Numbered from the stretch's first letter, positions 14,836 to 58,086 are shown. The stretch is DNA of 64,000 nt from Edaphobacter sp. (GCA_965277335.1 CBDICJ010000007.1:155780-219779); one strand, 5' to 3'. A program made the numbers and translations. Notes: generated by a model not told the origin, from the sequence alone.

Positions 14836-15028
14836 GTCGCCATCTCGACCGAAGCCACCGGGGTCGGCGAGCGCTTTTGTGTAAAGCATGTCATGGAACT
14901 TGACACAAAAGCGCTCGTGGGGTGGTAAGTCGTGCAGTTTTATCGCACGGCGAAGTGGAGAGATCCCCGTATTTCGCTTTTTGTCGTATTTCATCAAATC
15001 GGTGTCATCGTGAAGATCGGTGTTAAGC
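14836..15028. repeat. Composite repeat: D arm + IS-end scar + B module (reverse) + E module
   Basis: CATCTCGACCGAAGCCACCGGGGTC..GGCGAGCGC (D); 14878-14912 is identical to the IS481 right end plus flank at 19425-19459; GGTGGTAAG..CGTGC..GCACG..GGAGAGATCCCCGTATTTCGC (B, reversed); ATCGGTGTCATCGTGAAGATCGGTGTTAAGC (E). Confidence 0.85.
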
Positions 15029-18150: not shown

Positions 18151-19442
18151 CATGACATTCTTTACAGGTTGTTATCAGGAGATCCTTTCCATGTCGGGTT
18201 TGTCGACGTGGAGGTTGGGATGTCGTGGAGGGCGATGGGGGTGCGAGATCAACGGGTTGAGTTTGTGATTCGGGTGAGCCGGGGCGAGTCGATTTCGGCT
18301 TTGCCGGGAGTACGGCATCTCTCGTCCGACGGGTCATTTGTAGGTGCGACGGTTTCGCGAGGGCGGTGTGGAGGGTATGGAAGAACGCAGCCGCCGTCCC
18401 TGGACCAGTCCTGGGCAGACTTCCTCTGAGATCGAAGCGCGGATCGTGGCATGGCGCCGGCAGCGGCCCGACTGGGGAGCACGGAAGCTGGCGGTCCTGC
18501 TGGAACGAGAGGGCAAGAAGCTGCCTGTGATCACCGTGCATCGGGTCTTGCTGCGGCACGGCCTGGTGTTGCCGCACGACCGTAGACGCACGGCAACGCA
18601 GCGTTTCGAGCGGGAGCGCCCGAACGAAAGCTGGCAGATGGACTTCAAGGGGCCCAAGGAGTGCAAGGCGGCGGTCGGGCCGTTGTCGGTGCTCGACGAC
18701 CACAGCCGCTATCTGGTGGCGCTGGAGCAGACCGGTTCGACCCGCGGACAGGCGGTGCGCGAACAGCTGGAAGCTATCTTCTCGGCCAACGGCGTGCCCG
18801 AAGCGATGCTGATGGACCACGGTGTGCCATGGTGGAACGCGCAAGCGCCCAGCGGCTGGACCAGGCTCCTGGTCTGGCTGATGAAGCAGGGCATCGGCTG
18901 CCATTTTTCCGGCTACCGGCATCCGCAGATCGGGGTCCCCGCGGACAGGTCTTGGTCCGTGGGGTGGAGACCCAGGGCAAGGTGGAGCGATTTCATGGCG
19001 CGCTGGAACGGGCACGCTGCCGCCGCCCCGGCCAGCAGCCATGGCTGGCGCAGAGTTGGCTCGATGAGTTCCGCCACGAGTACAACCAGGTTCGACCGCA
19101 TCAGGCCCTCGCCATGCGCACGCCGGCTTCGCTCTGGCAGCCGAGCCCGCGCAGGTACGATCCCAACCCGCCCGAGTGGGAGTATGAACCGGGAGCCGAG
19201 GTCCGGCGACTCAGCGTGGACGGAGACCTCTACCTCGAAAGCCGGCGATGGACGATCAGTCTCGCCCTGGCCTCGGAGCCGGTCGAGCTCAAGCGCCTCG
19301 ACCAGCGCATCCTGGTCTATTACTGCCGCACTCTAGTCCGCGAAATCAGCCTCTGTGCCCAGCGCTCCACTGCAGTGGAGCGCTGGGCACAGCCTCCTGC
19401 CTGTAAAGAATGTCCTGATAACGATGTGTAAAGCATGTCATG
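18151..19442 (+). mobile_element. IS481-family insertion sequence (decayed)
   Basis: ~30-bp imperfect terminal inverted repeats (CATGACATTCTTTACAGGTTGTTATCAGGA vs revcomp CATGACATGCTTTACACATCGTTATCAGGA, 25/30) bracket a DDE transposase reading frame. Confidence 0.8.
18220..19431 (+). pseudogene. IS481-family DDE transposase, disrupted
   Basis: N-terminal HTH MSWRAMGVRDQRVEFV...CREYGISRPTG..RRFREGGVEGMEERSRRP, then WQMDFKG...LDDHSRY...HPQ/TQGKVERFH. Lesions: frameshift near 18300, in-frame TAG at 18341-18343, and a 41-nt insertion (18929-18969) splitting HPQ|TQGKVERFH. Confidence 0.8.
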
Positions 19443-19520
19443 GAACTTGACACAAAAGCACTCGCCGGGGACCCCGGTGGCTTCGGTCGAGATGACGATT
19501 TTAAGGAGCTGTTAGACAGG
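19443..19520. repeat. Module D, right arm of the palindrome interrupted by the IS
   Basis: GAACTTGACACAAAAGCACTCGCCGGGGACCCCGGTGGCTTCGGTCGAGATGACGATTTTAAGGAGCTGTTAGACAGG. Confidence 0.85.
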
Positions 19521-19586
19521 TTCGAAGAATCGAGATATGGGAACGCGGATTTGTTCCGAGGCTTGGTCGCGGCCGATCGGGCTGGA

Positions 19587-19973
19587 TCAGCGGCGGGTGT
19601 AGAGCCAGGCCCAGTAGATGAGGGGGAGTTGCAGGGGAATTCTGAGCCAGAGTGCCCAAAGTGGGATGGAGGCGAATCTGGTGTGGTCGACGACCATGTT
19701 GAGGTTGGCCGGCAGGACGGCGATCAGGAGCGTCATAAGACCCCAGGCGGCGGCGTGACGGGTGAGCGGCAGGAGGAGCCCAAGACCTCCGAAGATCTCC
19801 GCGATGCCGCTGAGGTAGACCAGCGTGAGTGGCGCGGGGAGAGCGAGAGGCATGATTTTTACGTAGGCCTGGGGGATGAGGAAGTGCAGGCTGCCGGCAA
19901 TAACGAAGAGGATGGCCAGGAGGGTGCGTCCGATCATGCTGGGGGCCTGCTCTCTTGCGGCTTTATGAGACAT
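19587..19973 (-). CDS. DoxX-like family small membrane protein
   Basis: 128 aa with four predicted TM helices. FVIAGSLHF...YLSGIAEIFGGLGLLLP...LLIAVLPANLNM resembles DoxX-like proteins. Confidence 0.6.
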   Translation of the reverse strand: MSHKAAREQAPSMIGRTLLAILFVIAGSLHFLIPQAYVKIMPLALPAPLTLVYLSGIAEIFGGLGLLLPLTRHAAAWGLMTLLIAVLPANLNMVVDHTRFASIPLWALWLRIPLQLPLIYWAWLYTRR

Positions 19974-20012
19974 GCATGACCGTACTCAACGGCAGGGAGT
20001 AGAAAGCCAAAA

Positions 20013-20125
20013 GGAGGAAGCAACAGTAATCGCGCTTGCGGAATGCGGGGATCTCTCCACTGCGCGCCAGACGATGAAACCGTCTGGCGCTTCGGTCGAG
20101 ATCACGAATTTTGTGTAGGTCGAGG
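20013..20125. repeat. Repeat module B, copy B2
   Basis: ..GCAACAG..GCGGAATGCGGGGATCTCTCCACTGCGC + hairpin GCGCCAGACG-ATGAAA-CCGTCTGGCGC + TTCGGTCGAGATCACG. Confidence 0.85.
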
Positions 20126-20233
20126 ACGGGAAGACAGTGGCAAAAGACGAAGGGTACAAGGACGGGCGGCGGGATGATCCCGCCGCCCGTTTTAAGAACC
20201 TGTCCAAATACTCCATAGGAGGTTTGCGAAACC

Positions 20234-20346
20234 AAAAACAAGCAACAGCAAAGACGAAATACGGGGATCTCTCCACTGCGCCGTGCGATAAAACCACACG
20301 GCTTCGGTCGAGATGACGGCTTCTTTTGAGTTTCTGGACAGGTTCT
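20234..20346. repeat. Repeat module B, copy B3
   Basis: AACAAGCAACAGCAAAGACGAAATACGGGGATCTCTCCACTGCGCCGTGCGATAAAACCACACGGCTTCGGTCGAGATGACGGCTTCTTTTGAGTTTCTGGACAGGTTC. Confidence 0.85.
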
Positions 20347-20364
20347 AAGAACGCTGCCGAGATA

Positions 20365-20829
20365 CTACTTTGCGGCGAGGGCGTCGCGGTGGCTCTTCAC
20401 GAAGTCGTGTGAGGTGAGAACGTGGGCCTGCTGCTCGGCGATGAGTTGGCGGACGGGCAGGGGGAGTTCCTGGTGGAGAGCGTCGGCGTAGGCCTTCTTG
20501 GCTTCGTCTTCGCCCTGTTCCGCGGTTTCGAGCAGGGTGTGGTCGCCTCCGCCGAGTTTGGCCTTGAGGTCGCCCCAGACGCGGTGGAGTGCTCCGGCGG
20601 TGGTGCCGGACTCCTTGATGTCGTGGACTCCGTTCTGATGCAGGACCTCTTCGAGGTCGCCGCGGAAGCTGGCGCGCTTAAGGGATTCGGCGAGGAAGTA
20701 TCGCTTCAGAGTTTCGTCCTTGAGATGTTCGCCGATGTCGGAGAAGCCTTTCTGGCTGTCCAGAAGGGTGCTGATGAGGGAGTCGAGCGCGCGCTGCATC
20801 TCGTGCTGTTTACCTGAATCTGTCGGCAT
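20365..20829 (-). CDS. PA2169/DUF2383 family four-helix-bundle (ferritin-like) protein
   Basis: LISTLLDSQKGFSDIGEHLKD...HRVWGDLKA...LLETAEQGEDEAKKAYADAL is the characteristic family pattern. Start trimmed to MPTDSGKQ (ATG 20829, GAGG 7 nt upstream). The 463-aa ORF extension is antisense to ftsK. Confidence 0.8.
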   Translation of the reverse strand: MPTDSGKQHEMQRALDSLISTLLDSQKGFSDIGEHLKDETLKRYFLAESLKRASFRGDLEEVLHQNGVHDIKESGTTAGALHRVWGDLKAKLGGGDHTLLETAEQGEDEAKKAYADALHQELPLPVRQLIAEQQAHVLTSHDFVKSHRDALAAK

Positions 20830-25380: not shown

Positions 25381-25571
25381 GTCCTGCCGGACGAGCCCGC
25401 TGCGCGCGGGGCGGTCACTTCGTGACGCGTATACCGGTCTGGGCAGGATGAGCTGCATAGGTCCTCCCGTTGGTCGGAAGGGAAATCCTGATCCCGACCA
25501 ACGGGAGGGCCAACCGAAGGGGTATACGCGTCACGAAGTGACCTCCGCGCAGGAGGCCCGTCCGGCAGGAC
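25381..25571. repeat. Repeat module A, copy A2 (complete, 191 bp nested palindrome)
   Basis: Outer arms GTCCTGCCGGACG.GCCCGCTGCGCGCGGGGCGGTCACTTCGTGACGCGTATACC / GGTATACGCGTCACGAAGTGACC..CGCGCAGGAGGCCCGTCCGGCAGGAC. Inner hairpin CCTCCCGTTGGTCGG..CCGACCAACGGGAGG. Confidence 0.9.
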
Positions 25572-25572
25572 A

Positions 25573-27666
25573 TCATTCTTTAGAAGGGCCGCGGAGGGCG
25601 AGCCAGTCTTTCTGGTAGGCGAAGCTGATGGCCATGAGGAGGGCGCCGAGGCCGAAGAAGCTGAGGATTCGGTATCCCTGGCTGAGGTTGCGGAGGTCGT
25701 AGAGGAAGACCTTGGCGATGGTGAAGACGAGCAGGACCAGGGCCTGCCAGCGGAGGAAGGCGGAGCGTTTCCAAAAGCCGGCGGCGAGCAAGGAGGCGCC
25801 GTAGAGCATGAGGAAGGCGGAGATGGCGAGGGCCTTCTGGAGGTCGATGTCGGGGTCGGCGGCGGGATTGCGGAAGACGGTTTCGAGCTCGCGGATGCAG
25901 GCGAGGATGGCGGTGAGGTTGAGAGCGAGGAGGGAGGCGGCGGCGAGGGTGAGCCAGGTGGGGAAGGCTTCTTCGATCTGTTGGTGGTTGGCGCGGAGGG
26001 CGATGGCGGCGGAGAGGGCGAAGGCGAGGATGCCGCAGAGGGCGGTGGCGAAGCGGGTGTTCAGGAAGGCGGTCTGGACGGCGGGGTAGAACCAGAGGGG
26101 GGGGAGGAGGAGGCCGAGGAAGCCGAGAGTGAGGGCTAAGAGCGCGAGGCGGCGGAGGGTGAGGGCAGGGTTGGAGCCGGGGACGAAGGTGGTTGGCTGG
26201 ATTGAGGTGGCGGAGGAGAGCGGTTCGCGCGTGGCGCGAATAACCCACCCTTTGCGATAAAACCGCAAAGGATGGGGCACCCGGGTTGGTGGCTGATGCG
26301 AGAGGGTGCCGGAAGTCTGAGTGAGGCGGGCGGAGATCCAGAGGAGGGCGGTGCCTTCGGCGAGCCAGCCGATGGTGATCCAGCGGCCCGATGCCTTGAG
26401 GGGGATGGCGATGGTGAGGAAGACGACGGCGAGAGCGAGATGGACGGCGGAGGTGACGCGGGTCTGAAGGCTGGCGGGCAGGCGGGTGAGGCCGAGGTAG
26501 ATGGCGGCGAGGAGGACGGCGACCCAGGGGAGGAGATCGTGGTCGCCCGCGTCGTCGAGGACGGCGTAGAAGGCGAGGGCGGTGAAGGCGGCGTTGGCGA
26601 GAGGGAGGAAGACTTCGAGGATCGGGGTGTAGGTTGGCTGGGGGGTTGGGGTAGAGGCAGAGGTTGTGTTGGGAGTATGGGTTGGTTCGAGGGTTGAGTC
26701 AGCGGTTGAGGTTGGGTTGGGGGTAGAGGTTGGTTCGGGGGCGGCGGCGGGTTCGCCTAGCGGTGTGGTGCGGAGGGAAGGAGAGAGGAAGGTGAAGAAG
26801 AAGAGCGCGAGAAAGAGGCTGGTGACGGCTTCCTGCTGGTTGGCGGTGGAGGAGTTGTACCAGCCGAGGTACCAGGCGAGGAAGTAGGCAACGGTGGCGG
26901 GGAAGGCGAGGAGGAGCAGACGGGGCCAGAGGTTGACCCGGGCTTTGAGACGAATGAGCGCGATGGCGGCGATGTCGATGACGAGGAGGTAGGCGAAGAG
27001 GAAGACTTCGTGGTTGCCGCCGGTCGAGAGCAGAAGCGGGGTGGCGAAGGCTCCGGCGAGGGCGTAGGCGGCGAGGAGTTCACTGTTCTGCGACCAGGCC
27101 ATGAAGGCGTTCCAGGCGGTGACCAGGACCATGGCGGCGAGGGCGACGGGGGCGGGTAGGAGGTGGTAGAGCTGGAAGGCGGCCCAGAGGGAGAGATAGA
27201 GCGCTCCGCTGCCGATGGCTTTGAGGGCGTAGGCGAAGGCGGGGAAGCTGCGGCGGCGGAAGCGCTCGGACCAGAGGATGACGGCGGCTCCGGCGAGGAG
27301 GCCGACGAGGGTGCGAGCGACGGGGCCGATCCATTGGTTGTCGACGGCCCATTTGAGGAAGAGGGCGGTGGCGATGAGCAGGGCGACGATGCCGATGCGG
27401 CTGAAGAGCTGGGAGCCGATGCGGTCTTCGAGGGAGGCTTTGGGTTTGACGGGGCGCTGGCCGAAGGCAGGGGGAGGCGGCTTCGGGGGCGGTTCGGCTG
27501 CGGGGGGCGAGGCGTGCGGCGCTTCGGCGGATGTGCTGGGTGGATTGCGGAGGTCGGAAAGCTGACGTTCGAGGACGTCTACGCGGGCGGTGAGGGCGGC
27601 GAACTCTGCGGCGAGCTGGGCGTTCGATTGAGAACGAATTTGTTGCTGCTGCTCGTCGGACGCCAT
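25573..27666 (-). CDS. DUF2339 family polytopic membrane protein
   Basis: N-terminal coiled coil, Pro-rich linker, LEDRIGSQLFSRIGIVALLIATALFLKWAVDNQWIGP, many TM helices, and C-terminal ..TIAKVFLYDLRNLSQGYRILSFFGLGALLM.. . All are hallmarks of DUF2339. Confidence 0.8.
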   Translation of the reverse strand: MASDEQQQQIRSQSNAQLAAEFAALTARVDVLERQLSDLRNPPSTSAEAPHASPPAAEPPPKPPPPAFGQRPVKPKASLEDRIGSQLFSRIGIVALLIATALFLKWAVDNQWIGPVARTLVGLLAGAAVILWSERFRRRSFPAFAYALKAIGSGALYLSLWAAFQLYHLLPAPVALAAMVLVTAWNAFMAWSQNSELLAAYALAGAFATPLLLSTGGNHEVFLFAYLLVIDIAAIALIRLKARVNLWPRLLLLAFPATVAYFLAWYLGWYNSSTANQQEAVTSLFLALFFFTFLSPSLRTTPLGEPAAAPEPTSTPNPTSTADSTLEPTHTPNTTSASTPTPQPTYTPILEVFLPLANAAFTALAFYAVLDDAGDHDLLPWVAVLLAAIYLGLTRLPASLQTRVTSAVHLALAVVFLTIAIPLKASGRWITIGWLAEGTALLWISARLTQTSGTLSHQPPTRVPHPLRFYRKGWVIRATREPLSSATSIQPTTFVPGSNPALTLRRLALLALTLGFLGLLLPPLWFYPAVQTAFLNTRFATALCGILAFALSAAIALRANHQQIEEAFPTWLTLAAASLLALNLTAILACIRELETVFRNPAADPDIDLQKALAISAFLMLYGASLLAAGFWKRSAFLRWQALVLLVFTIAKVFLYDLRNLSQGYRILSFFGLGALLMAISFAYQKDWLALRGPSKE
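26230..26293. repeat. Repeat module C, copy C1, lying in frame inside the DUF2339 CDS
   Basis: GTGGCGCGAATAACCCACCCTTTGCGATAAAACCGCAAAGGATGGGGCACCCGGGTTGGTGG matches the intergenic copies at 27781-27838 and 42073-42117. Translated as ..PTRVPHPLRFYRKGWVIRA.. Confidence 0.8.
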
Positions 27667-27764: not shown

Positions 27765-27850
27765 ATGCTGGGAGATTCGGTGGCGCGAATCCCACCCATG
27801 CGATGAGACCGCATGAATGGGGCACCCGGTTGGGAGTGGCAGTTGGTGGT
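27765..27850. repeat. Repeat module C, copy C2
   Basis: GGGAGATTCGGTGGCGCGAATCCCACCCATGCGATGAGACCGCATGAATGGGGCACCCGGTTGGGAGTGG. Confidence 0.85.
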
Positions 27851-27892: not shown

Positions 27893-28023
27893 GACAGGCA
27901 ACGGCAAAGGCGAAATGCGGGGAGGTTCGGTGGCGCGAACTCCCACCCATGCGATGAGACCGCATGAATGGGGCACCCGGCACCCGGCACCCGGCGGAAT
28001 GGGGCACCCGGTTTGGGAGTGGG
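27893..28023. repeat. Composite repeat (B 5' half + C), copy C3; left direct repeat flanking the VOC genes
   Basis: GACAGGCAACGGCAAAGGCGAAATGCGGGGAGGTTCGGTGGCGCGAACTCCCACCCATGCGATGAGACCGCATGAATGGGGCACCCGG(CACCCGG)n..TTTGGGAGTGGG. About 90% identical by eye to 29004-29138 over the first ~88 nt. Confidence 0.85.
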
Positions 28024-29003: not shown

Positions 29004-29138
29004 GACAGGCGACGGCAAAGGCGACATGCTGAGAGATTCAGTGGCGCCAATCCCACCCATGCGATGAGACCGCATGAATGGGGCACCCGGTTTGGGAGTG
29101 GGGCACCCGGCGGAATGGGCACCCGGTTTGGGAGTGGG
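29004..29138. repeat. Composite repeat (B 5' half + C), copy C4; right direct repeat flanking the VOC genes
   Basis: GACAGGCGACGGCAAAGGCGACATGCTGAGAGATTCAGTGGCGCCAATCCCACCCATGCGATGAGACCGCATGAATGGGGCACCCGGTTTGGGAGTGG... in the same orientation as 27893-28023. Confidence 0.85.
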
Positions 29139-30750: not shown

Positions 30751-30946
30751 GTCCTGCCGGACGGGCCCGCTACGCGCGGGGCGCCCACTTCGTGGGGGGT
30801 GTACTCCTTCGGGTGGGCCTCCCGATGGTCGGCGGGAAGACTTTCGCGCCGACCAGCGGGAGGCCCTATGCATCTCATTCCGGCAAGAAAAGGTATACAC
30901 GTCACGAAGTGACCGCGCGCCGCGCAGGAGGCCCGTCCGGCAGGAC
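30751..30946. repeat. Repeat module A, copy A3 (complete, inverted relative to A2)
   Basis: GTCCTGCCGGACGGGCCCGCTACGCGCGGGGCGCCCACTTCGTGG...CCTCCCGATGGTCGGCGGG..CCGACCAGCGGGAGG...GGTATACACGTCACGAAGTGACCGCG..GCAGGAGGCCCGTCCGGCAGGAC. Confidence 0.9.
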
Positions 30947-32006: not shown

Positions 32007-32090
32007 CAGCGACAAAAGCGAAGTGCGGGGATCTCTCCACTGCGCTGCTCACAATGAGGCTGTGAGCAGCTTCGGTCGAGAGGAAGAGTT
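32007..32090. repeat. Repeat module B, copy B4
   Basis: GCGACAAAAGCGAAGTGCGGGGATCTCTCCACTGCGC + hairpin GCTGCTCACA-ATGAGGC-TGTGAGCAGC + TTCGGTCGAGAGG. Confidence 0.85.
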
Positions 32091-34124: not shown

Positions 34125-34304
34125 GTCCTGCCGGACGGGCCGCCTGCGCGGCGCGCCCACTTCGTGGGGGGTGGGCCTCCCGGTGGTCGGCGGGAAGACT
34201 TTCGTGCCGACCATCGGGAGGCCCAACGCTACCCGTCCTATCGAGACAAGGTATACATGTCACGAAGTGACCGCGCGCCGCGCAGGCGGCCCGTCCGGCA
34301 GGAC
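34125..34304. repeat. Repeat module A, copy A4 (same orientation as A3)
   Basis: GTCCTGCCGGACGGGCCGCCTGCGCGGCGCGCCCACTTCGTGG...CCTCCCGGTGGTCGGCGGG..CCGACCATCGGGAGG...GGTATACATGTCACGAAGTGACCGCG..GCAGGCGGCCCGTCCGGCAGGAC. Confidence 0.9.
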
Positions 34305-35966: not shown

Positions 35967-36076
35967 GTAAAACAAGCAACGGCAAAAGCGAAGTGCGGGG
36001 ATCTTGATGAGTGTTGGAAAGCGGTCTCGCTACGCTCGATGCCCACATCTCAGAATCGAGATATGGGGCACCCGGC
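35967..36076. repeat. Composite repeat: B 5' part + C hairpin module (C5)
   Basis: GTAAAACAAGCAACGGCAAAAGCGAAGTGCGGGGATCT... then CCCACATCTCAGAATCGAGATATGGGGCACCCGG (36042-36075). Confidence 0.8.
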
Positions 36077-37004: not shown

Positions 37005-37241
37005 GCAAAACAAGCAACAAAAAGACGAAATGCGGGGATCTCTCTACTTCACCGTGCGATAAAACGCACGGCTTACCACCCCAGCGAGCAAAAGCCCTCG
37101 CCGGGGAACCCCGGTGGCTCCGGTCGAGATGACGGCTTCTTTCGATTTCTGGACAGGGTCTTCGGTCGAGAGGACGGCTTTTTGAGTTTCCGGACAGGTT
37201 CTTCGGTCGCGATGACAACTACTTTTGAGTTCTCGACGGGG
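37005..37241. repeat. Composite repeat: B + D + three tandem ~40-bp units
   Basis: GCAAAACAAGCAACAAAAAGACGAAATGCGGGGATCTCTCTACTTCACCGTGCGATAAAACGCACGGCTTACCACCCCAGCGAGCAAAAGCCCTCGCCGGGGAACCCCGGTGGCTCCGGTCGAGATGACGG..., then (T)TCGGTCG(A/C)GA(T/G)GAC..TTT.GA(T/G)TT.C.GGACAGG x3 (37118-37241). Confidence 0.85.
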
Positions 37242-41012: not shown

Positions 41013-41127
41013 AACAAAAAACAGACAACAACAAAAGCGAAATGCGGGGATCTCTCCACTACGCCGTGCGATAAAACCACACGGCTTCGGCCGAGATGAC
41101 GACTTTAAGAAGTTATTAGACAGGTTC
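41013..41127. repeat. Repeat module B, copy B7
   Basis: AACAAAAAACAGACAACAACAAAAGCGAAATGCGGGGATCTCTCCACTACGCCGTGCGATAAAACCACACGGCTTCGGCCGAGATGACGAC..TTAGACAGGTTC. Confidence 0.85.
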
Positions 41128-42072: not shown

Positions 42073-42136
42073 CCCACCCTTTGCGCAAAGTGACGCGCAA
42101 AGGATGGGGCACCCGAAGTTTGCACCCGAAGTTTGC
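42073..42136. repeat. Repeat module C, copy C6 (in the rpsB-tsf spacer)
   Basis: CCCACCCTTTGCGCAAAGTGACGCGCAAAGGATGGGGCACCCGAAGTTTGCACCCGAAGTTTGC. Confidence 0.8.
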
Positions 42137-43270: not shown

Positions 43271-43311
43271 GCGGGAAAACCCAGGTCTCAGAATCGAGAC
43301 CTGGGGCACCC
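43271..43311 (-). terminator. Module C copy C7 acting as a terminator-like hairpin downstream of rpsI
   Basis: Minus strand: CCCAGGTCTC-GATTCT-GAGACCTGGG followed by TTTTCCCGCC, starting ~20 nt after the rpsI stop. Confidence 0.4.
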
Positions 43312-44673: not shown

Positions 44674-46749
44674 CTACCGAGGCTTTCGCGGTTCCGTCAA
44701 GGATTGATTCGAGGGACCTTCTGAATTCGGGCCGGTTGCGGGAGTGGCTAAGTCCGTAGCCGATTCCGTTGCTAAGTCCAGGATGTACATGCTGCCGTCG
44801 TCATAGAGGCGGCGGCGGGTGCGGGCGAGTTCGGCGTATTGCTGGTGGGAGCGGAGAGCGATTCTGGCCTCGCTGTGGATCCACTGGGTTCGGCTGGGGT
44901 CGGCGATGACGTGGGGAGCGCCTTCGTCGAAGCCGGCGAAGTCCGCGTAGTTGTAGACGAGGTAGCGGAGGTGGTGGGCGAGAAGGTACTGGGCGAGGGC
45001 TTCGCCGTTCTGGCGGGAGGGCCAGCCGGGGGGAAGGCTGGCGGCGCCGGGATAGTCGGCGATGTCGATGGGATGGGCGCGGAAGTCGAGCAGGAAACTG
45101 TTGCCGACGGTGGCGAGGGTGCCGGCGTCGTCAGGAAGCGCGCGCTGCATGGCGGCGTATTCGGCGTGGACGCTGGGGGGGACGATGGGAATGTCGAGCA
45201 GTGCGGATTTGAGACCCCAGGGGATCTGCAGAAACTCGTTGGTGAGCTTATTGCGCCAGATGGAGACGGCTGCCAGCACGATGAGCAGGACGGTGCAGGT
45301 TTGGAGGATGAGCCAGCGGCGGGTCTTGAATACAGCTTGCGATACGGCTGGGAAGACGGCGTTGGCCCGGCGGCTGAAGACGACATAGAGAAGAAGGATG
45401 GCTGGGAGCATGCAGGGGTAGTTGTAGCGGCGCACGGAGTCTCCGCCGGTGGCGATGCCGACGAGCAAGGCGGCCCCGAAGGCGGCGGCGGAGAGGGCCA
45501 GGATGGCTTCGGACTGTTCGTCGCGCTCGCCGCGGGTCTTGAAATTCCAAAGAGTCTTGAAATTCCGGGGATTCCCGGGATTCCAGGGATTCCAAGATGT
45601 CCACAGAATCCATTCGACGAGGAAGAGGAGGAGCAGCGGAAGGCAGAACGGGACGACCTTGTGCAGGAGGATGGAGATGCCGGCTCCTGAGGGCGCGGGG
45701 TAGAGGCCGTAGGCGCTGTATTGATAGCCGGGGCCGAGCGAGGGATAGAAGAAGGTTCCCGAGGCGCTATGGCTGGCGATCATCCAGGGAGCCATGATGA
45801 GTAAGGCGCCGAGGGCGGCCAGGAGGAGGGTTTTGAGGCCGGATGCGAGGCTGCGGCGCCTCCAGTGGAAGAGGGCGAGGCAGCCTGCGAAGAGGACGCC
45901 GTGCGGCAGGTAGGTGGACTTCATGGCGGCGACGGCTCCGGTGACCGCGCCGAGGAGGAGAGCGAGGAGGGCTGGATGTTGGGCGAGGAGTTTTCGATTG
46001 GCGGCGAGGGAGACGAGGCCGAAGAATAAGGCGCTGGGCAGCAGGACGAAGGTGAGGTTGAACTGAAGCTGCGGGGTAAAGACGACGAGCAGGGCGAAGA
46101 TGGCTCGCTGCATGGAGGTGAGGCGGAATTCGCGGGCAAGATCGAAGACCAGGAAGGCGAGGAGGAAGAGACCGAGAGCGCGGTCGGCCATCTGGACGTC
46201 TTCAAGGGGGAGGACGGCAAGGACCATGTCCTGCAGGAAATAGTTGCCGCCGATGCTGGACATGATGCGGCGCTCGCTGAAGGGATCGGCGGCGTAGTGG
46301 TGGAGTTCGAGCATCTTGCAGGGGGCGGCGAGATAGAAGTTGTAGTCGTCGGAGGCCTGGTACTGGCCCGCATGCACGGTTGCGCCGAGGCGGATGGCGA
46401 AGAGGAGGGCGGCGAGGCAGAGCAGGAGAGTGGCGGCGCGGGAATGGGGCGGCTGGACGGCTTTGTCTTCTGGCTCGGAGTTGGCGAGGGGGATGCGGAG
46501 CAGGAGGGCGGCGATGATGCCGAACAGAGAAAGGGCGATGAGGATGGGAGAGGTAATGGCGTGGGCGAGATTCAGACAGCCGCCGAGGAGGAGGACGACG
46601 GGGACGCCGGCGGTGGCTGCAAGGGCGATGGACGGGCGGCGCAGGCCGAAGAGTCGCAGCAGGATGGCTCCATAGCCGGCGAGGGAGAGGAAGAGAAGAG
46701 CGCACCAGAGGAGGGCTTCGGCGAAGTGCAGGAGGGAGGCTGGCGTCAT
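44674..46749 (-). CDS. Large polytopic membrane protein with C-terminal soluble domain (unknown function, envelope-glycan-like context)
   Basis: 691 aa with ~14 hydrophobic segments and a ~200-aa C-terminal hydrophilic domain. Divergent from an acyltransferase-3 gene. Confidence 0.6.
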   Translation of the reverse strand: MTPASLLHFAEALLWCALLFLSLAGYGAILLRLFGLRRPSIALAATAGVPVVLLLGGCLNLAHAITSPILIALSLFGIIAALLLRIPLANSEPEDKAVQPPHSRAATLLLCLAALLFAIRLGATVHAGQYQASDDYNFYLAAPCKMLELHHYAADPFSERRIMSSIGGNYFLQDMVLAVLPLEDVQMADRALGLFLLAFLVFDLAREFRLTSMQRAIFALLVVFTPQLQFNLTFVLLPSALFFGLVSLAANRKLLAQHPALLALLLGAVTGAVAAMKSTYLPHGVLFAGCLALFHWRRRSLASGLKTLLLAALGALLIMAPWMIASHSASGTFFYPSLGPGYQYSAYGLYPAPSGAGISILLHKVVPFCLPLLLLFLVEWILWTSWNPWNPGNPRNFKTLWNFKTRGERDEQSEAILALSAAAFGAALLVGIATGGDSVRRYNYPCMLPAILLLYVVFSRRANAVFPAVSQAVFKTRRWLILQTCTVLLIVLAAVSIWRNKLTNEFLQIPWGLKSALLDIPIVPPSVHAEYAAMQRALPDDAGTLATVGNSFLLDFRAHPIDIADYPGAASLPPGWPSRQNGEALAQYLLAHHLRYLVYNYADFAGFDEGAPHVIADPSRTQWIHSEARIALRSHQQYAELARTRRRLYDDGSMYILDLATESATDLATPATGPNSEGPSNQSLTEPRKPR
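45536..45596. repeat. In-frame tandem repeats inside the membrane-protein gene
   Basis: GTCTTGAAATTCC x2 (19-nt period), then (G/C/A)GGGATTCC x3 (45567-45593). Encodes WNPWNPGNPRNFKTLWNFKT. Confidence 0.85.
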
Positions 46750-48341: not shown

Positions 48342-48512
48342 GGGGGACGGCTCGCTCGAGACCCACATCTCAAAATCGAGATATGGGGCACCCGGCGACA
48401 AATGATGGGACTGTTTGTCACTTACCATCCCTAGCGAGCAAGTGCGCTCGTCGGGGGACGGCGCGCTTGAGGCCCACATCTCAAAATCGAGATGTGGGGC
48501 ACCCGGCACCCG
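48342..48512. repeat. Two module C copies (C8, C9) with D-like and B-like fragments
   Basis: GGGGACGGCTCGCTCGAGACCCACATCTCAAAATCGAGATATGGGGCACCCGG (to 48395) and GGGGACGGCGCGCTTGAGGCCCACATCTCAAAATCGAGATGTGGGGCACCCGGCACCCGG (to 48512). CTTACCATCCCTAGCGAGCAAGTGCGCTCG lies between them. Confidence 0.85.
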
Positions 48513-48576: not shown

Positions 48577-51537
48577 TCACGTGCTGCGAGAGGTGCGCGA
48601 GTGCGCGGGATCGAGGATTGCGTATTCGATGCGATTGCGTCCTCTATTCTTCGCGAGGTACAACGCTCTGTCGGCGGCGGCAACAGCATCGCCGGCATCC
48701 ACGCCGTAGTCGCCTCCAGCCAGCGCGACACCGATGCTGCAGGTGACCACGAGCTTTTGCTTACCGATTGGGACCGGATCTTCGGTTAGAGCTGACTTGA
48801 GTTTTTCCAATCTTGCTCCGAGCGCTGCCATCTCGAGGTCGGCGAGTCTCTGCGGATGGGGCAGCAGAACCAGAAACTCTTCGCCGCCATAGCGCCCGGC
48901 GGCATCGTAGGCGCGGATACCGCTGCTGAACCGGCGGCCGATCTCGCGCAAGACAGCATCCCCCGCCAAGTGGCCGTGCTCATCGTTGATGGCTTTGAAG
49001 TAGTCGATATCGATCAGCACCACAGCGAGCGCCGTGTTCGCGCGTTTCGCCCGCGCGAACTCGCTTGTCAGCAGCTCCACGATCCGGTTGCGATTCCACA
49101 GGCCGGTGAGGGTGTCGCGGGTGGCCAACTGCTCGAGTTCCCGGGTGCGAACCGACACCAGGGTCTCGAGCTCCTGCTGCCGTCGCAGCAGATGACGGAC
49201 GCGCAGCCTCCAGGCCAGCAGCACGCATGCGGTGACGACCAGCACCTCCAGCAGGCTCGAGAGACCGGTCTGCCACCATCGCGGGGAGATCACAAAATGA
49301 AAGGTCGTGGAGGGCGAGACGGAACGCGACACCGGGTCGACCGAGACCAGTTCCAAGGTGTAGGCACCCGGCGGCAGAGGAGAGTAATGCGCGGAGGTCT
49401 TGTCGGTCGAAATCCAGTCTGGATCGATCTCGGTGAGGCGATATCGATAGGTAAGCTCGCTTTCGTGGTCGTAGGCAAGCGGCGAAAAATCGATATCGAG
49501 CGGCTGGCCGTGCCATGGCGTTCTGCCGGTGGCTGCGCTCAACGAGACGCGTCCATACTTGATCGAATCGACGCGGGGGGCGGGCGGAGGCGTCGATGCG
49601 GCCACCGAGGAGCCGACATAATGGCTCAAGCCTTCGCTGGTGCCGATCCATACCGTGCCATCGCGATCCGCAAAGAACGCTTTGGAGTTGACATCGTTCC
49701 ACAGCAGGCCATCGTCGGTGTTGAAGAGGCGCCATCTCTGGCCGTCGAAGACATCGACTCCACTGTCGTGTCCGACCCAGATGCGGCCGCGCCGGTCGCT
49801 GCGAGCGAAGACTGCCATCTTGGAGGAGACCTCTTGCGGTCCCATCGGCTGCGCGGCCGCGACTCGTCCCTGCTTGAGAGTCAACTTCCAGACGCGCGAA
49901 TAATCCGTCACCGCCCAGAGCGATCCATCGGTGCCGAAGTCGATATCGATAAACTGGGTGGGGAGCGAGGGCACATCGATCGGCGCTGCCCGCCAGGCTC
50001 CGTCCACCATTTCAAACAAGCCTGCCAGACTGGCCGCCCACAGCTTCCCCTGGCGGTCTGCGATGACGCGATAGACATCGGTCGCCGGCGTGCCTGCAAG
50101 ATCGACTCTCACCGCCTTTTGTCCGGCTGGGGCGGCGGCATCGACCATGTAGAGTCCCTGTTCGGTGGAGATCCAGATCCTGTCTTCCCTATCGGCAAAG
50201 ATCTGGTGCCCGGAAGGAAGATCCGGATAGCGTTCGATCTTCCCTGTGTCCGGGTCGATCTTGATCAGGGCGCCCTGGCCACTGATAGCCCAGATTTTTC
50301 CAAGGCGGTCCTGGGTGATTCCCTGCATGCTGCGGGCGGAGTGTTTCAAGCTGCCGGTTACAGAGTGGAAGCGCGTCCGCGATGGATCGCTCACACTGAT
50401 ACCGCCCTCTTCGGCGACCCACAGCCGGTTTTTCTCGTCGTTCAGGATTCCCCATACGATTGAGCTTCCCAGGCCATCCGCGGAGGTCCAGTTCTCCCAC
50501 TTGCCGTAGCCCAGCCAGCGCACTACGCCATGGCCTACCAGGCCCATCCAGATGCGACCGTCGTGGTCGATCAGAAGAGAAGAGAGCGCGGAGGCGATCA
50601 GTCCATGAGCCTCGTTCAGAAAGCTCCAGCGGCCGTCTTTCCACAGCGCCAAGCCTGTCTCCGCAGCCGTCGCGATCTTTCCATCGGAGGTCTCGGCGAA
50701 GCTGATGTAGTAGTTGTTGGTGAACTGGCCGGCATCGGCTCCGGCACGGTCTTCAAAGCGCGGCGCGCCGCGGGGCAAAGCAATCACGCGGTTATTGCTC
50801 CGCGCCCAAAGAGTTCCGTCGCTGCTGGAAAAGAGCGCATACCAAGCCGCGTCCGGCACGCCCTGGTCCTGGCTCCAGCGGTGCAGCTTTCCATGGAGAA
50901 ACTGACAAAGGTTGTGCCCGCAACCCAGCCAGATCTCCTCTCCGCCGCGCGCCAAGACGCTGGTGATCGCCTCTTCGGAAGACAGTCCGCGAAATTCGGC
51001 GAGTTCAAGGGCAGGCTGCGCATACGGCCTACCGTCGGCGTCTCGCGAGACGGCGAACAGGCGATAGTTTCCGACGACCAGAAGGCGTCCATCGCCCAAT
51101 GCGGCTATGGAAGAATCGACTCCGACGCCGATCGGTTTCCCTTTGTAGAGGACACCGTGGAAGCTGCCGTCTTGCTGCGATTTCTGAGATTCCCGGGATT
51201 CCCGGGACTCCCGATAGAACAGCCCGCTTCCGGTGCCTGCCCAGAGACGCCCCGCCGCATCTTCGGCCAACGCGACCACGTAGGGGTTCGTCAGGCCTTC
51301 CGCCGCGCCGTACTGCTGAAATCGGCTGCCGTCGTAGCGGAAGAGTCCATTGTCGGTCCCCATCCAGAGAAAGCCAGCACGGTCTTGCAGCATCGAATCG
51401 ACGTTCAGATTCTTCAAGCCTTGGGCCTGGCCGTAGGTCTTGAAGGCATAGCGCTGCGCCCCGCCCGGAACAGCCGCGGCCGCGCACAAAAGACCACACA
51501 ACAAAGATGTGGCCGGCAAGGTTGACCGGGTTCGCAG
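48577..51537 (-). CDS. Periplasmic beta-propeller (Reg_prop) / Y_Y_Y sensor diguanylate cyclase (GGDEF)
   Basis: Repeated ..LWxGTxxGLxxxD.. propeller motifs, one TM, and a C-terminal GGDEF domain (RYGGEEFLVLL, DIDYFKAINDEHGH). No ATG precedes the signal peptide LLCGLLCAAAAVPGGAQ. The start is guessed at CTG 51537 or TTG 51519. The upstream ORF extension is repeat DNA. Confidence 0.85.
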   Translation of the reverse strand: MRTRSTLPATSLLCGLLCAAAAVPGGAQRYAFKTYGQAQGLKNLNVDSMLQDRAGFLWMGTDNGLFRYDGSRFQQYGAAEGLTNPYVVALAEDAAGRLWAGTGSGLFYRESRESRESQKSQQDGSFHGVLYKGKPIGVGVDSSIAALGDGRLLVVGNYRLFAVSRDADGRPYAQPALELAEFRGLSSEEAITSVLARGGEEIWLGCGHNLCQFLHGKLHRWSQDQGVPDAAWYALFSSSDGTLWARSNNRVIALPRGAPRFEDRAGADAGQFTNNYYISFAETSDGKIATAAETGLALWKDGRWSFLNEAHGLIASALSSLLIDHDGRIWMGLVGHGVVRWLGYGKWENWTSADGLGSSIVWGILNDEKNRLWVAEEGGISVSDPSRTRFHSVTGSLKHSARSMQGITQDRLGKIWAISGQGALIKIDPDTGKIERYPDLPSGHQIFADREDRIWISTEQGLYMVDAAAPAGQKAVRVDLAGTPATDVYRVIADRQGKLWAASLAGLFEMVDGAWRAAPIDVPSLPTQFIDIDFGTDGSLWAVTDYSRVWKLTLKQGRVAAAQPMGPQEVSSKMAVFARSDRRGRIWVGHDSGVDVFDGQRWRLFNTDDGLLWNDVNSKAFFADRDGTVWIGTSEGLSHYVGSSVAASTPPPAPRVDSIKYGRVSLSAATGRTPWHGQPLDIDFSPLAYDHESELTYRYRLTEIDPDWISTDKTSAHYSPLPPGAYTLELVSVDPVSRSVSPSTTFHFVISPRWWQTGLSSLLEVLVVTACVLLAWRLRVRHLLRRQQELETLVSVRTRELEQLATRDTLTGLWNRNRIVELLTSEFARAKRANTALAVVLIDIDYFKAINDEHGHLAGDAVLREIGRRFSSGIRAYDAAGRYGGEEFLVLLPHPQRLADLEMAALGARLEKLKSALTEDPVPIGKQKLVVTCSIGVALAGGDYGVDAGDAVAAADRALYLAKNRGRNRIEYAILDPAHSRTSRST
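51186..51212. repeat. In-frame 9-nt tandem repeat (x3) inside the diguanylate cyclase gene
   Basis: GAGATTCCC GGGATTCCC GGGACTCCC. Encodes RESRESRES on the minus strand. Same unit as at 45567-45593. Confidence 0.85.
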
Positions 51538-51749: not shown

Positions 51750-51905
51750 GTAAAGCAAGCACCAGCAAAAGCGGATGCGGGGATCTCTCCACGCCGCCGC
51801 GCGATGAAGCCGCCCGGCTTACCACCCCAGCGAGCAAAGGCGCTCGCCGGGGACTCCAATGGCTGCGGTCCAGATGACGACCACATTGAGTTTTTTCACA
51901 GGTTC
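51750..51905. repeat. Composite repeat B + D, copy B8
   Basis: GTAAAGCAAGCACCAGCAAAAGCGGATGCGGGGATCTCTCCACGCCGCC...GGCTTACCACCCCAGCGAGCAAAGGCGCTCGCCGGGGACTCCAATGGCTGCGGTCCAGATGACGACC...CACAGGTTC. Confidence 0.8.
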
Positions 51906-52256
51906 TTAAAGGCAGCATCGGTGGGATCGCTCTTCGGTTCTTTCCAAACCGCAGGCTTCCTGCGCGCGAACAAGCTGCAACGTGCGATAGCTGGGCCTGA
52001 TTCTCCAGAGTATTATCACCGTTCCCGCGTCTCTTGTCCCGACTTTCCGCAGAATCCGGTCTTCGCATCAGAAATGTTAACAAAGGCAGCCCTCAGTCGA
52101 ACCGTTCATCCGTTCATCGGCGTGCCAGCAAACGCCTGTCGCGCGGCGCGCATCTTTCTAGCAAGACTTCCTGCTTGGAGGCAGGACGGCAATACCCTGT
52201 CGGTGTGAGTAGGGATCACCCGGATCGAACCATCTAGAATCGAATCACCGAGAACT

Positions 52257-54314
52257 ATGGAGCCTATGAAACCTGTCGAAGGGCGCAAGCGTGTCGTCAT
52301 AGAAGAAGTTCAGCCACAGGTAGACTGCGGCCGCTATCCTGCAAAACGCATTATCGGCGACGTCGTCAGCATATCGGCCGCCGTCTTCGGGGATGGACAC
52401 GACCACGTCGCGGGCCGCCTGCTCTATCGAGCCGGTAAAGAAGACGGCTGGCGTTCCATCGCTCTTACTCCCCTCAGCAACGACCTATGGACTGCCAGCT
52501 TCACGGTCGACCGTCTCGGCGACTGGCGCTACACTCTCGAAGCCTGGATCGACCATTTCGACACCTGGTGCGACGACCTGAAGAAGCGTCTCGCCGCGCA
52601 GCCAACGCCCGACGCACAGACCCCGGCCACCGAAGCGCAGGACATTCCTCTCGCTCTCCGCTCCGGCGCTCTTCTGCTGGAGCAGGCCGCGCATCGCGCC
52701 AAAGACCCCCACAAGACCCTGCTCGCCGACGCGGCAGCCAATCTAAACCAACTCGCGGACCGCAACTCCGCCGCGTATGAATATCCCATCTCCGCCGAGG
52801 TCGCCGAAGCAGCCGCGCTCTATCCTGACCCCACCTTGATCACCCGCTACGCGCAGGAGCTGCCTCTGTGGGTTGACCGCGAGCGGGCGCGCTACTCGAC
52901 CTGGTACGAACTCTTTCCCCGCTCCGCAGCGCCTGCGGCGATGGAGGGCGGCGCCATTCGCCACGGCACCTTCGCCGACGTGCAGGCGCTTCTGCCCGAG
53001 ATCGCCGCGATGGGCTTCGACGTCGTTTATCTGCCGCCGATCAGCCCTATCGGCAACGCCTACCGCAAGGGCCGCAATAACAGCGTCACCGCAAACGCAG
53101 ATGACCCGGGGAGCACCTGGGCAATCGGCTCTAAAGAGGGCGGTCATAAATCCATTCTGCCCGAGCTCGGCACGCTGCGCGACTTCAAGGGACTCGTCGC
53201 CGTTGCCCGCGATCACGCGATGGAGCTCGCGCTTGACATCGCATTCCAGTGCTCGCCGGATCACCCCTGGGTCGCCGAGCATCCCGAGTGGTTCATCATT
53301 CGCCCGGACGGCTCCATTCAGTACGCGGAAAATCCGCCGAAGAAATATCAGGACATCTATCCGCTCAACTTCGAATCTTCCAACTGGCGCGGCCTATGGG
53401 AGGCGCTCCGCGACGTCTTTGCCTACTGGATACGCCAGGGCGTTCGCATCTTTCGCGTCGACAATCCCCACACCAAGGCTCTGCCGTTCTGGGAGTGGTG
53501 CATCGCCGATCTCCACGTCAAATACCCCGACGTGCTTTTCCTCGCCGAAGCCTTCACTCGCCCGCACGTCATGTACTCGCTGGCGAAGGCCGGCTTTACC
53601 CAGTCCTATACCTATTTCACCTGGCGCACCACCAAGGCCGAGCTGCAGCAGTATTTCGAGGAGATCACCAAGCCGCCGGTGACCGATTTCTTCCACCCGA
53701 ACCTCTGGCCGAACACCCCGGACATTCTCCACGCCACGCTCCAGACGGGAGGCCGTCCCGCCTTTATGCAGCGCGTGATTCTGGCTGCTACGCTGGGCGC
53801 GAACTACGGCATCTATGGACCGGCCTACGAGCTCGGCGAAAATCTTCCCGCCAAGCCCGGCAGCGAAGAGTATCTCAACAGCGAAAAATACGAGATTCGG
53901 CAATGGGACCGCACCGCGAGCCACAGCATCGCGCCTCTGATCACGAATCTCAACCGCATCCGCCGCGAAAATCCTGCGCTGCAGAACGATATCTCGCTGC
54001 ACTTCCACAATGTCGATAATCCGAACGTCCTCTGCTACAGCAAGTGCGCCGACAACAATCGCATTCTGGTCGCCGTCAACCTCGATCCCACGCAGGAACA
54101 GGCGGGCTGGATCGACCTCAACCTGAAAGAACTCGGCGTGCCGCACAACCAGAACTTCGATGTGGAGGATCTTCTCACCGGCATCCATTACCAGTGGCAC
54201 GATCGCAGCAACTATGTCGCGCTGCGCCCTGATGTCATGCCCGCCCACATCTTCCGTGTCACTATTCCAAGTCCCGCTGCTATGTCATCGGAGGCCGAAC
54301 CAAGCAAGGCCTAA
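52257..54314 (+). CDS. glgE: Alpha-1,4-glucan:maltose-1-phosphate maltosyltransferase GlgE
   Basis: N-terminal VIEEVQPQVDCGRYPAKR..GDVV.., YSTWYELFPRS, FRVDNPHTK, and GH13_3-type catalytic core. Confidence 0.92.
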   Translation: MEPMKPVEGRKRVVIEEVQPQVDCGRYPAKRIIGDVVSISAAVFGDGHDHVAGRLLYRAGKEDGWRSIALTPLSNDLWTASFTVDRLGDWRYTLEAWIDHFDTWCDDLKKRLAAQPTPDAQTPATEAQDIPLALRSGALLLEQAAHRAKDPHKTLLADAAANLNQLADRNSAAYEYPISAEVAEAAALYPDPTLITRYAQELPLWVDRERARYSTWYELFPRSAAPAAMEGGAIRHGTFADVQALLPEIAAMGFDVVYLPPISPIGNAYRKGRNNSVTANADDPGSTWAIGSKEGGHKSILPELGTLRDFKGLVAVARDHAMELALDIAFQCSPDHPWVAEHPEWFIIRPDGSIQYAENPPKKYQDIYPLNFESSNWRGLWEALRDVFAYWIRQGVRIFRVDNPHTKALPFWEWCIADLHVKYPDVLFLAEAFTRPHVMYSLAKAGFTQSYTYFTWRTTKAELQQYFEEITKPPVTDFFHPNLWPNTPDILHATLQTGGRPAFMQRVILAATLGANYGIYGPAYELGENLPAKPGSEEYLNSEKYEIRQWDRTASHSIAPLITNLNRIRRENPALQNDISLHFHNVDNPNVLCYSKCADNNRILVAVNLDPTQEQAGWIDLNLKELGVPHNQNFDVEDLLTGIHYQWHDRSNYVALRPDVMPAHIFRVTIPSPAAMSSEAEPSKA

Positions 54315-54438
54315 CACCGATTTCAGCGATTCAAGACACGATGAGGAGACATGCGCACGGCCGTTTTTTCTCATGCTTTTGTCTTCTTGTTTTCAAGCGT
54401 TCCTCCGCGCCAATGCGCGGTTGTTAATTATTAAGTTT

Positions 54439-54471
54439 GATCGGTATCATCGGTGAAGATCGGCGTTAAGC
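54439..54471. repeat. Repeat module E, copy E2
   Basis: GATCGGTATCATCGGTGAAGATCGGCGTTAAGC. Confidence 0.75.
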
Positions 54472-54537
54472 ATTCTCTTCTCCTCATCCCGCATACAATC
54501 ATGCAAGGCAGCAAGCGACACACAAGGACGATCACGA

Positions 54538-57900: not shown

Positions 57901-58086
57901 CGGGCGATGCTTGCAGTCGAACAAAGGCGGTAAGAAAAACACCTGTAATCGTTTCGCGCTTCCGAAGCTTCTTCAGATTTTTCTCTTGCACTCATCGGAT
58001 TCGCCGGCTTCGTTGTGCCACGCAACTGCTTCGCAGCTGGAGATGCGCTACGACGATCTTCCCGACATCAGCCTGTCAAAGCAGGA

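Follow-up and report, generated by a model that had tools for sequence, protein, structure and literature searches.

Covarying hairpins in an Edaphobacter-like genome as likely structural heads of REP-type palindromic elements, with one module a predicted RAYT substrate

The variable hairpins found in this stretch of acidobacterial DNA are likely to be the structural heads of REP-type, non-autonomous palindromic elements arranged in a BIME-like mosaic of modules, of which module C is the predicted substrate of a RAYT protein. They belong to families of REP-type palindromic repeats spread through the genome, DNA of a familiar sort that may be selfish or domesticated. The window, a stretch of 64,000 nt (C7:155780-219779), comes from an Edaphobacter-like genome of 4.31 Mb, nine contigs and 60% G+C, to which, among public genomes, Edaphobacter MAGs (Acidobacteriaceae) are most closely related. 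All nine hairpins quoted in a first-pass annotation made from the sequence alone were found exactly at the coordinates given there, and all are contained in two dispersed repeat families, module B and module C. Because the conserved flanks of these modules each recur about 200 times across the genome, the hairpins are not chance palindromes; control patterns for the flank searches returned 0 matches. Units of both families are mostly intergenic and are enriched between convergent genes.

Module B has the form (AAAACAGGCAACGACAAAGGCGAAATGC)-GGGGATCTCT-CCACTRCG-[hairpin]-CT-TCGGTCGAGA-TGACG(ATTTT), and a genome-wide pattern search found 208 copies. The type-1 core of 31 nt, with the head GCCGTGCG-ATAAAAC-CACACGGC, is present in 73 copies, most of which carry a C·A mismatch, and the type-2 core of 35 nt, with a 10-bp stem and the loop ATGAGAC, in 43; a short head, GCGGCGC-AAAGG-CGCGCC, occurs in a few. 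Within the window, the copy at 20042-20106 (plus strand; pattern match 20047-20101, 91.5 bits with the covariance model R1) contains the reported hairpin GCGCCAGACG-ATGAAAC-CGTCTGGCGC at 20064-20090, and its predicted fold consists of an outer stem, GAUCUC/GAGAUC, followed by ACUG/CGGU and then the 10-bp variable stem. Further plus-strand copies lie at 20258-20318 (type-1 head CCGTGCG-ATAAAAC-CACACGG with the C·A mismatch, from pattern search and covariance model), 32022-32086 (head GCTGCTCACA-ATGAGGC-TGTGAGCAGC, from the covariance model), 37029-37134 (type-1 head with a 1-nt deletion; its right flank is preceded by a second cassette, TTACCACCCC..GGTGGCT), 41041-41101 (type-1 head, from repeat search and covariance model) and 51774-51879 (a diverged copy with the second cassette; R1 30.4 bits, E = 2.8e-6; repeat families D6, D7 and D10). 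The sole minus-strand copy of module B in the window, at 14838-14973, has extra sequence within its second cassette and sits to the left of the window's switch in skew and orientation.

The second cassette, TTACCACCCC-AGCGAGC-AAAAGC-GCTCGC-CGGGGACCCCGGTGGCT, stands between the first hairpin and the right flank in about 45 copies of module B. This optional 45-nt unit (TACCACCCC...GGTGGCT; window 37063-37129) is always placed between ...GGCT and TCGGTCGAGA, itself ends in GGCT and is sometimes doubled; the sequence arrangement suggests site-specific insertion or tandem duplication after GGCT.

Module C has the form CCCA-[variable stem-loop]-TGGG-GCACCC(GG), and 191 copies with a good hairpin were found among 392 genome-wide matches to its tail, in subfamilies of 26, 30, 31, 32 and 33 nt. 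The 26-nt subfamily, here called C-a (95 copies), corresponds to a second hairpin type that the first-pass annotation had described as behaving like the first, and it does so: its pairs 5 and 6 vary, pair 5 being C·A in 70 copies, C-G in 9, G-C in 9 and T-A in 5, and pair 6 being A-T in 81 and G-C in 13. In the window, C-a is represented on the plus strand at 36042-36073 (CCCACATCTC-AGAATC-GAGATATGGG-GCACCC, with C·A at pair 5), at 48362-48393, at 48473-48504, where the mismatch is closed by C-G at pair 5, and at 43280-43311, a variant (CCCAGGTCTC-AGAATC-GAGACCTGGG) with two compensated pairs. Other plus-strand copies of module C carry the head CATGCG-ATGAGAC-CGCATG (27791-27827, repeat family D12; 27942-27978; 29052-29088), the head CTTTGCGC-AAAGTGAC-GCGCAAAG (42073-42114) or the sequence CCCACC-CTTTGCG-ATAAAAC-CGCAAAG-GATGGGGCACCC (26244-26282). 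The last of these lies in frame within a DUF2339 membrane-protein gene on the minus strand (25573-27666), whose reading frame stays open.

Covariation of the stems, claimed at first pass, is borne out by the copies of module B within the genome. We aligned the 43 copies with a 35-nt core without gaps and compared the alignment with 500 shuffles and with slid pairing partners. The cores are distinct in 42 of the 43 copies, and the flanks are nearly identical. Pairing is retained in 94.1% of cells versus 87.0 ± 0.5% in shuffles, and falls to 30–50% in the slid controls. Changes on both sides of a pair are seen in 68 cells versus 17.2 ± 5.4 after shuffling (0 of 500 shuffles reach 68), the covariation score is 0.274 versus 0.127, and 7 of the 10 inner-stem pairs show such two-sided changes. 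At alignment columns 26/46 and 28/44 about half of the copies have G-C and about half A-T, with unpaired intermediates nearly absent; since all four combinations of the two pairs occur, the changes must have been recurrent, and amplification of two subfamilies does not suffice to explain them.

Across genera, an alignment of 20 copies of module B from about 12 genera shows changes on both sides at 13 of 19 pairs, with 94.6% pairing and a covariation score of 0.653 versus 0.181 when shuffled, figures from a model-fitted alignment that leans towards structure. The two-sided changes include the outer helix, which reads TCTCT/AGAGA, TCCCT/AGGGA or TTTCT/AGAAA. Conservation of the loop, a further element of the original claim, holds within subfamilies and head classes and fails across the other subfamilies of module C and across genera. 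The loop GAT(A/G)A(A/G)AC marks one head class, which comprises most copies of module B, the copies of module C starting at 26244, 27791, 27942 and 29052, and RAYT-flanking repeats in other genomes; other subfamilies of module C have the loops AAAAGC, AGAGAAC, ATAAAGCC and A(A/G)AATC. As the inner stem and loop of module B are unrelated in sequence from genus to genus, loop conservation is a property of the head class within this lineage and not of the family.

The most serious competing explanation, possible if rather unlikely, is that compensation is mechanical, in that intrastrand template switching or mismatch correction in an extruded hairpin copies changes from one arm to the other, so that stems drift fast and stay paired. 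The divergence of nearly all type-2 stems between nearly identical flanks, the scarcity of G·T or A·C intermediates where G-C has been exchanged for A-T, and the existence of all four combinations of two variable pairs are each in keeping with it. Hairpin-templated correction, rather than selection, could indeed account for part of the compensation and for the near-absence of intermediates. Against it, the conserved C·A mismatch persists uncorrected in 70 of 95 copies of C-a, in most type-1 copies of module B and in 81 of 90 hairpins flanking RAYT genes (see below). Correction would explain how a stem changes, but not why flanks, foot and mismatch are conserved family-wide. It may add to the speed and cleanness of the compensation, and it leaves the conserved mismatch unexplained.

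Module C is associated with RAYT genes. Four matches to Y1_Tnp (PF01797) were found in the genome, with 53.8 bits for the RAYT-type protein. Two tandem, intact RAYTs of 157 aa (C5:35288-35760 and C5:36008-36480) score 119.9 and 116.8 bits against NF047646 (REP_Tyr_transpos; cut-off 80 bits) and contain the motifs HVHLL (HUH) and RYIHRNP (the Y-x3-N-P tyrosine motif). Inverted copies of CCCACCCTTCGCAAARGCGCGAAGGATGGGGCACCC enclose each gene, the upstream one at a distance of about 24 nt and the downstream one at about 12 nt. Truncated RAYT remnants occur at two places (C5:~35060 and C9:483778-484062), each preceded by the variant CATGCG-GTCTCAT-CGCATG. The two intact genes are nearly identical, each with its own inverted flanks (C5:34950-36530), and the pair is inserted into, or adjoins, a decayed RAYT from a separate lineage, upstream of which stands a different variant of the head.

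RAYT genes are present in 58 of 61 genus representatives of the family, and at the 67 homologous loci in other Acidobacteriaceae with full flanks, an inverted C-type hairpin stands on both sides in 50 and on a single side in 14. The 90 distinct hairpins collected from RAYT flanks share the CCCA/TGGG foot and one or two C-G pairs, after which the stem is variable; pair 5 is C·A in 81, and pairs 8-11 vary in sequence while remaining 93% paired, versus 64 ± 2% when arms are shuffled between copies. The RAYT-flanking head class itself has only about 16 copies in the genome, and the most abundant subfamily, C-a, with its 95 copies, flanks no gene. Judged from these sequence comparisons, module C is the cognate repeat of a RAYT clade (HUH/Y1) widespread in the Acidobacteriaceae, and its role as substrate is predicted. 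The earlier suggestion of a folded structure recognised by either a Y1 transposase-like protein or an RNA-binding factor thus holds in its first half for module C, given the bracketed RAYTs, the 50 of 67 loci and the skew-following orientation described below; the RNA-binding factor finds little support.

The recognition rules of TnpAREP of E. coli, established by SELEX and mutagenesis, offer a close parallel: an unpaired state within the stem is essential and its sequence is not, the flanking motif, like certain positions (a few) of the lower stem, is read sequence-specifically, and the upper stem and loop, whose role is structural and non-specific, tolerate replacement by the complementary sequence but not deletion (PMC8266576). 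These rules predict a conserved foot, mismatch and tail together with a free but paired head, as found in module C. By analogy, a RAYT would bind module C as a folded single strand, recognise it by its flanking motif, lower stem and unpaired position, and need the upper stem-loop only as structure. Copies would then keep working or propagating only while their arms are complementary, which would place compensatory stems within conserved flanks. Cleavage and mobility of module C would follow from the same model, and the shared orientation of neighbouring copies, along the local strand asymmetry, would be explained by processing of single strands coupled to replication.

Module B is built to the same design as module C. 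The flanks of the two modules are unlike, and common to both are only the heads GCG-ATRARAC-CGC and CGCAAAGGCGCG. With the covariance model R1, module B was found in 30 of 61 genomes, one per genus of the family. Module B may be an older, family-wide element of the design seen in module C, with a conserved outer helix and internal-loop motifs round a hypervariable inner hairpin. No cognate enzyme was found for it, with 0 copies within 1.5 kb of 80 RAYT loci and none flanking a RAYT of the present genome. Co-occurrence is uninformative here because RAYT genes are present in 58 of the 61 genomes and module B in 30. A second RAYT clade in the genome (C8:701017-701463; 95 bits on NF047646) was considered as the enzyme of module B and rejected, its homologues being preceded instead by CCAAGGCTTCAGCCTTGG, GGGGCTTTAGCCCC and GCCGTTGC-type simple repeats. 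Given the lack of copies near RAYT loci and the other hairpins of this other clade, module B is best called an orphan REP-like element, and mobilisation in trans by a RAYT, or any other RAYT action on it, would be a hypothesis. At the second clade itself (C8:700650-701463), CCAAGGCTTCAGCCTTGG and GGGGCTTTAGCCCC are conserved hairpins that in several genomes stand ahead of the gene, along with simple-repeat runs of the GCCGTTGC/GCTTTTGC type; they probably represent another REP family.

A check of strand bias, proposed with the initial observation, revealed that the orientation of both modules follows local GC skew and not gene direction. Orientation agrees with the sign of GC skew, computed over ±5-kb flanks with the element excluded, for 185 of 208 copies of module B and 182 of 191 of module C (89–95%). 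Neighbouring copies within 4 kb have the same orientation in all 79 cases for module B (0 inverted) and in 90 cases for module C; the 3 inverted cases of module C are all RAYT flanks. In all, orientation switches 44 times among 391 adjacent pairs. An orientation bias with local skew is known for Y1 elements, where it has been attributed to use of the lagging-strand template (PMC3971601), and the skew-following orientation lends independent support to a single-strand mechanism for both modules.

The skew that these elements follow is itself unusual. From about 20000 to 47000 in the window, genes of both strands share a plus-strand GC3 skew of +0.5 to +0.72; those confirmed by Pfam include FtsK, two response regulators and an oxidoreductase on the plus strand and DUF3999, DUF2339, an ABC ATPase and RecQ on the minus strand. 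Skew is negative at 1-2600 and at 52000-58000. Genome-wide, the GC3 skew of opposite-strand neighbour genes is correlated (r = +0.57) and reaches ±0.5–0.7 on one DNA strand whichever way the genes point. About 34% of the genome falls into domains, about 115 in number, with |GC3 skew| > 0.3, and about 60% of the genome has near-zero skew. Per 100 kb of gene sequence, element density climbs about 8-fold with |GC3 skew|, from 4.9 to 38.9. The boundaries between domains are asymmetric: gaps are 7–10 kb at minus-to-plus and 17–32 kb at plus-to-minus boundaries (p about 0.02), the former being sharper, and the median gap at switches of element orientation is 14 kb for minus-to-plus versus 47 kb for plus-to-minus (p = 0.007). 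Jumps between 5-kb windows at a threshold of 0.3 show a modest asymmetry, 15 up versus 5 down.

Both the mosaic and the rule of element orientation recur in 400 kb of a complete, single-contig relative (C1:1980001-2380000). The sign of skew is kept among RecQ orthologues of five species and in 6 of 7 closer orthologue pairs with the complete relative (at least 57% protein identity). The mosaic is unlikely to stem from an assembly artefact or from recent inversions, given its presence in the complete relative and the mostly conserved sign in orthologues. Moreover, inverting baseline DNA cannot make domains of ±0.6 when about 60% of the genome has near-zero skew, and neither recent inversions nor assembly errors seem sufficient. 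In the literature searched we found no description of a strand-independent skew mosaic of this kind. The coupling of element orientation and density to strong local skew, together with the strict head-to-tail order, is possibly the more important lead. Two observations were made at switches. The copies of module B at 14838-14973 (minus) and 20042-20106 (the first on the plus strand) bracket the local switch in orientation and skew, with an IS481-like ORF between them (18344-19336), and two identical small IS5-like transposase ORFs (MYGSDLTDQQWAKLEPLL...) lie exactly at another minus-to-plus switch (C7:462436-463712).

A more speculative reading, which we consider improbable, is that the hairpins are polar markers of a chromosome with dozens of strand-asymmetry domains and many fixed start sites of a directional process that exposes single strands. 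The start sites could be sites of extra replication initiation or of strand-displacement synthesis from repeats nicked by HUH/RAYT enzymes, and the REP-like elements would either record or create the polarity. Such domains would resemble the skew 'N-domains' of eukaryotes, with an abrupt minus-to-plus switch and gradual relaxation in the present genome. If true, multiple fixed initiation sites or repeat-initiated strand displacement would bear on replication and mutation in slow-growing bacteria.

We also weighed a structured RNA, such as a small RNA, a 3′-UTR stabiliser or the target of an RNA-binding protein; the modules would then be its genes or cis-elements, and covariation would reflect selection on an RNA fold. 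The strength of the covariation and the conservation of module B over many genera would fit such a role, and classical REPs secondarily stabilise mRNA (PMC3733652). In co-directional intergenic regions, module B is more often sense than antisense (64 versus 35), but a further 54 copies lie between convergent and 31 between divergent genes, and module C shows a mild bias opposite to that of module B, with both orientations common. Copies inside reading frames, the dependence of orientation on skew instead of transcription, the conserved C·A mismatches on the sense strand, the long head-to-tail arrays and the inverted bracketing of a transposase gene by module C all speak against an RNA, as do the absence of any match to Rfam 15 in the window at gathering score, the lack of a conserved T-run 3′ of the hairpin across genera and the lack of enrichment of terminator-like sites. 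We therefore hold the RNA explanation to be doubtful.

Several specific assignments were rejected separately. Intrinsic terminators do not account for the hairpins: 13 terminator-like sites compare with an expectation of 11.9 ± 3.6, the main hairpins carry none of them, and no T-run follows module B in other genera. A permissive Rfam search of 19400-20400 gave only chance-level matches to an unrelated hairpin, and no tRNA or tmRNA was found. Neither attC sites nor CRISPR arrays are indicated, there being no R/L core sites and no spacer-repeat periodicity.

No more probable than a structured RNA is a role as polar sequences of chromosome architecture (like KOPS, Chi, or nucleoid and topoisomerase sites), with orientation under selection and the RAYT connection secondary. 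E. coli BIMEs have been reported to bind IHF and gyrase, and the lock of orientation to local skew, the few switches between adjacent copies and the rise of copy density with |GC3 skew| all count in favour of such a function. Against it, variation from 1 to >200 copies between congeners is typical of selfish amplification and not of an essential architecture signal, and no candidate binding protein was found. Similarity by chance or through ordinary repeat decay has nothing to recommend it beyond the small size of the motifs and can practically be dismissed: the control patterns gave 0 matches and the shuffles never reach the observed pairing or covariation, in agreement with the initial judgement that simple decay would not produce this pattern.

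As REP-type elements, the modules resemble the REP/BIME sequences and TnpAREP (REPtrons) of E. coli in being short, imperfect palindromes in high copy, mostly intergenic and at gene 3′ ends, in having a Y1/HUH gene bracketed by inverted copies, in conserving the lower stem, the unpaired position and the flanking motif while the upper stem and loop vary but stay paired, and in forming mosaics through combinations of motifs. They differ in lacking the classical GTAG/CGTC tags, with no conserved tetranucleotide 5′ of CCCA and instead a conserved, unpaired GCACCC on the 3′ side of the hairpin, which on the opposite strand reads GGGTGC and lies 5′. Their units run head-to-tail rather than alternating, the exceptions being the RAYT flanks, their orientation is locked to local GC skew, and several head classes occur on one foot. 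The REPIN–RAYT systems of Pseudomonas (Bertels and Rainey) likewise combine a domesticated RAYT in single or few copies with hundreds of cognate palindromes, in subfamilies amplified from master copies; REPINs, however, are inverted doublets that form a long hairpin, whereas inverted pairs occur here only round RAYT genes. Head-to-tail dimers are rare in REPINs and BIMEs (PMC3733652). The ends of IS200/IS605 and of their MITE derivatives (PATEs) are hairpins recognised as folded single-stranded DNA by Y1 enzymes, as is predicted here, and their orientation is similarly biased with the replication strand; the present elements differ in having no pairs of left-end and right-end hairpins, no tnpB, and a tnpA of RAYT type.

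The kind of system is already known, since RAYT-like genes with terminal inverted repeats (TIRtrons, or TIRYTs) have been reported in Acidobacteria as a sharply defined clade (Di Nocera et al. 2013, PMC3733652). As described there, some acidobacterial TIRs are self-complementary and repeated in the genome, with a G-rich motif, GGGGWSAS, in families that are only moderately abundant; the paper does not describe the foot–mismatch–variable-head anatomy, module B, head-to-tail arrays or skew-locked orientation. Set beside that motif, the G-rich tail GGGGCACC occupies a similar place but departs from W-S-A-S, and the related cassette GGGGACCC agrees with it at 7 of 8 positions. What is new is the anatomy, with its foot, mismatch, interchangeable heads and a GCACCC tail in place of GTAG, as well as the family-wide module B, the cassette mosaic, the arrangement of units solely head-to-tail and their coupling to local skew. 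The result is a well-defined REP/RAYT system outside the Proteobacteria, in a soil phylum that ranks among the most abundant and the least tractable. One foot and mismatch combined with many interchangeable heads amount to a natural recognition experiment that mirrors the in-vitro rules of TnpAREP and makes co-evolution of enzyme and substrate testable. As the modules occupy the majority of intergenic gaps, along with parts of the coding sequence in some reading frames, and create spurious ORFs, they should be masked in acidobacterial genomes.

The comparison genomes closest to this one have only about 73–77% DNA identity, too distant for intergenic alignment, and of the 31-letter words sampled, about 38% are common to the window and a relative present in metagenome runs. 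The Logan contigs of such runs, which combine strains in pieces of a few hundred bases, revealed no clean empty site; with the closest genomes about 75% identical and the metagenome contigs this fragmented, no insertion polymorphism of the units could be demonstrated. The window also contains a third repeat, module A, of about 190 bp with long inverted arms, at 247-420, 25381-25571, 30751-30946 and 34125-34304 (families D9, D11, D14 and D19), all of which lie between called reading frames. Metagenome contigs join its arms across loci, so module A is multi-copy in the community too. Finally, 9-bp tandem repeats of ATTCCNGGG occupy 45544-45611 and 51171-51220, both within long minus-strand reading frames.
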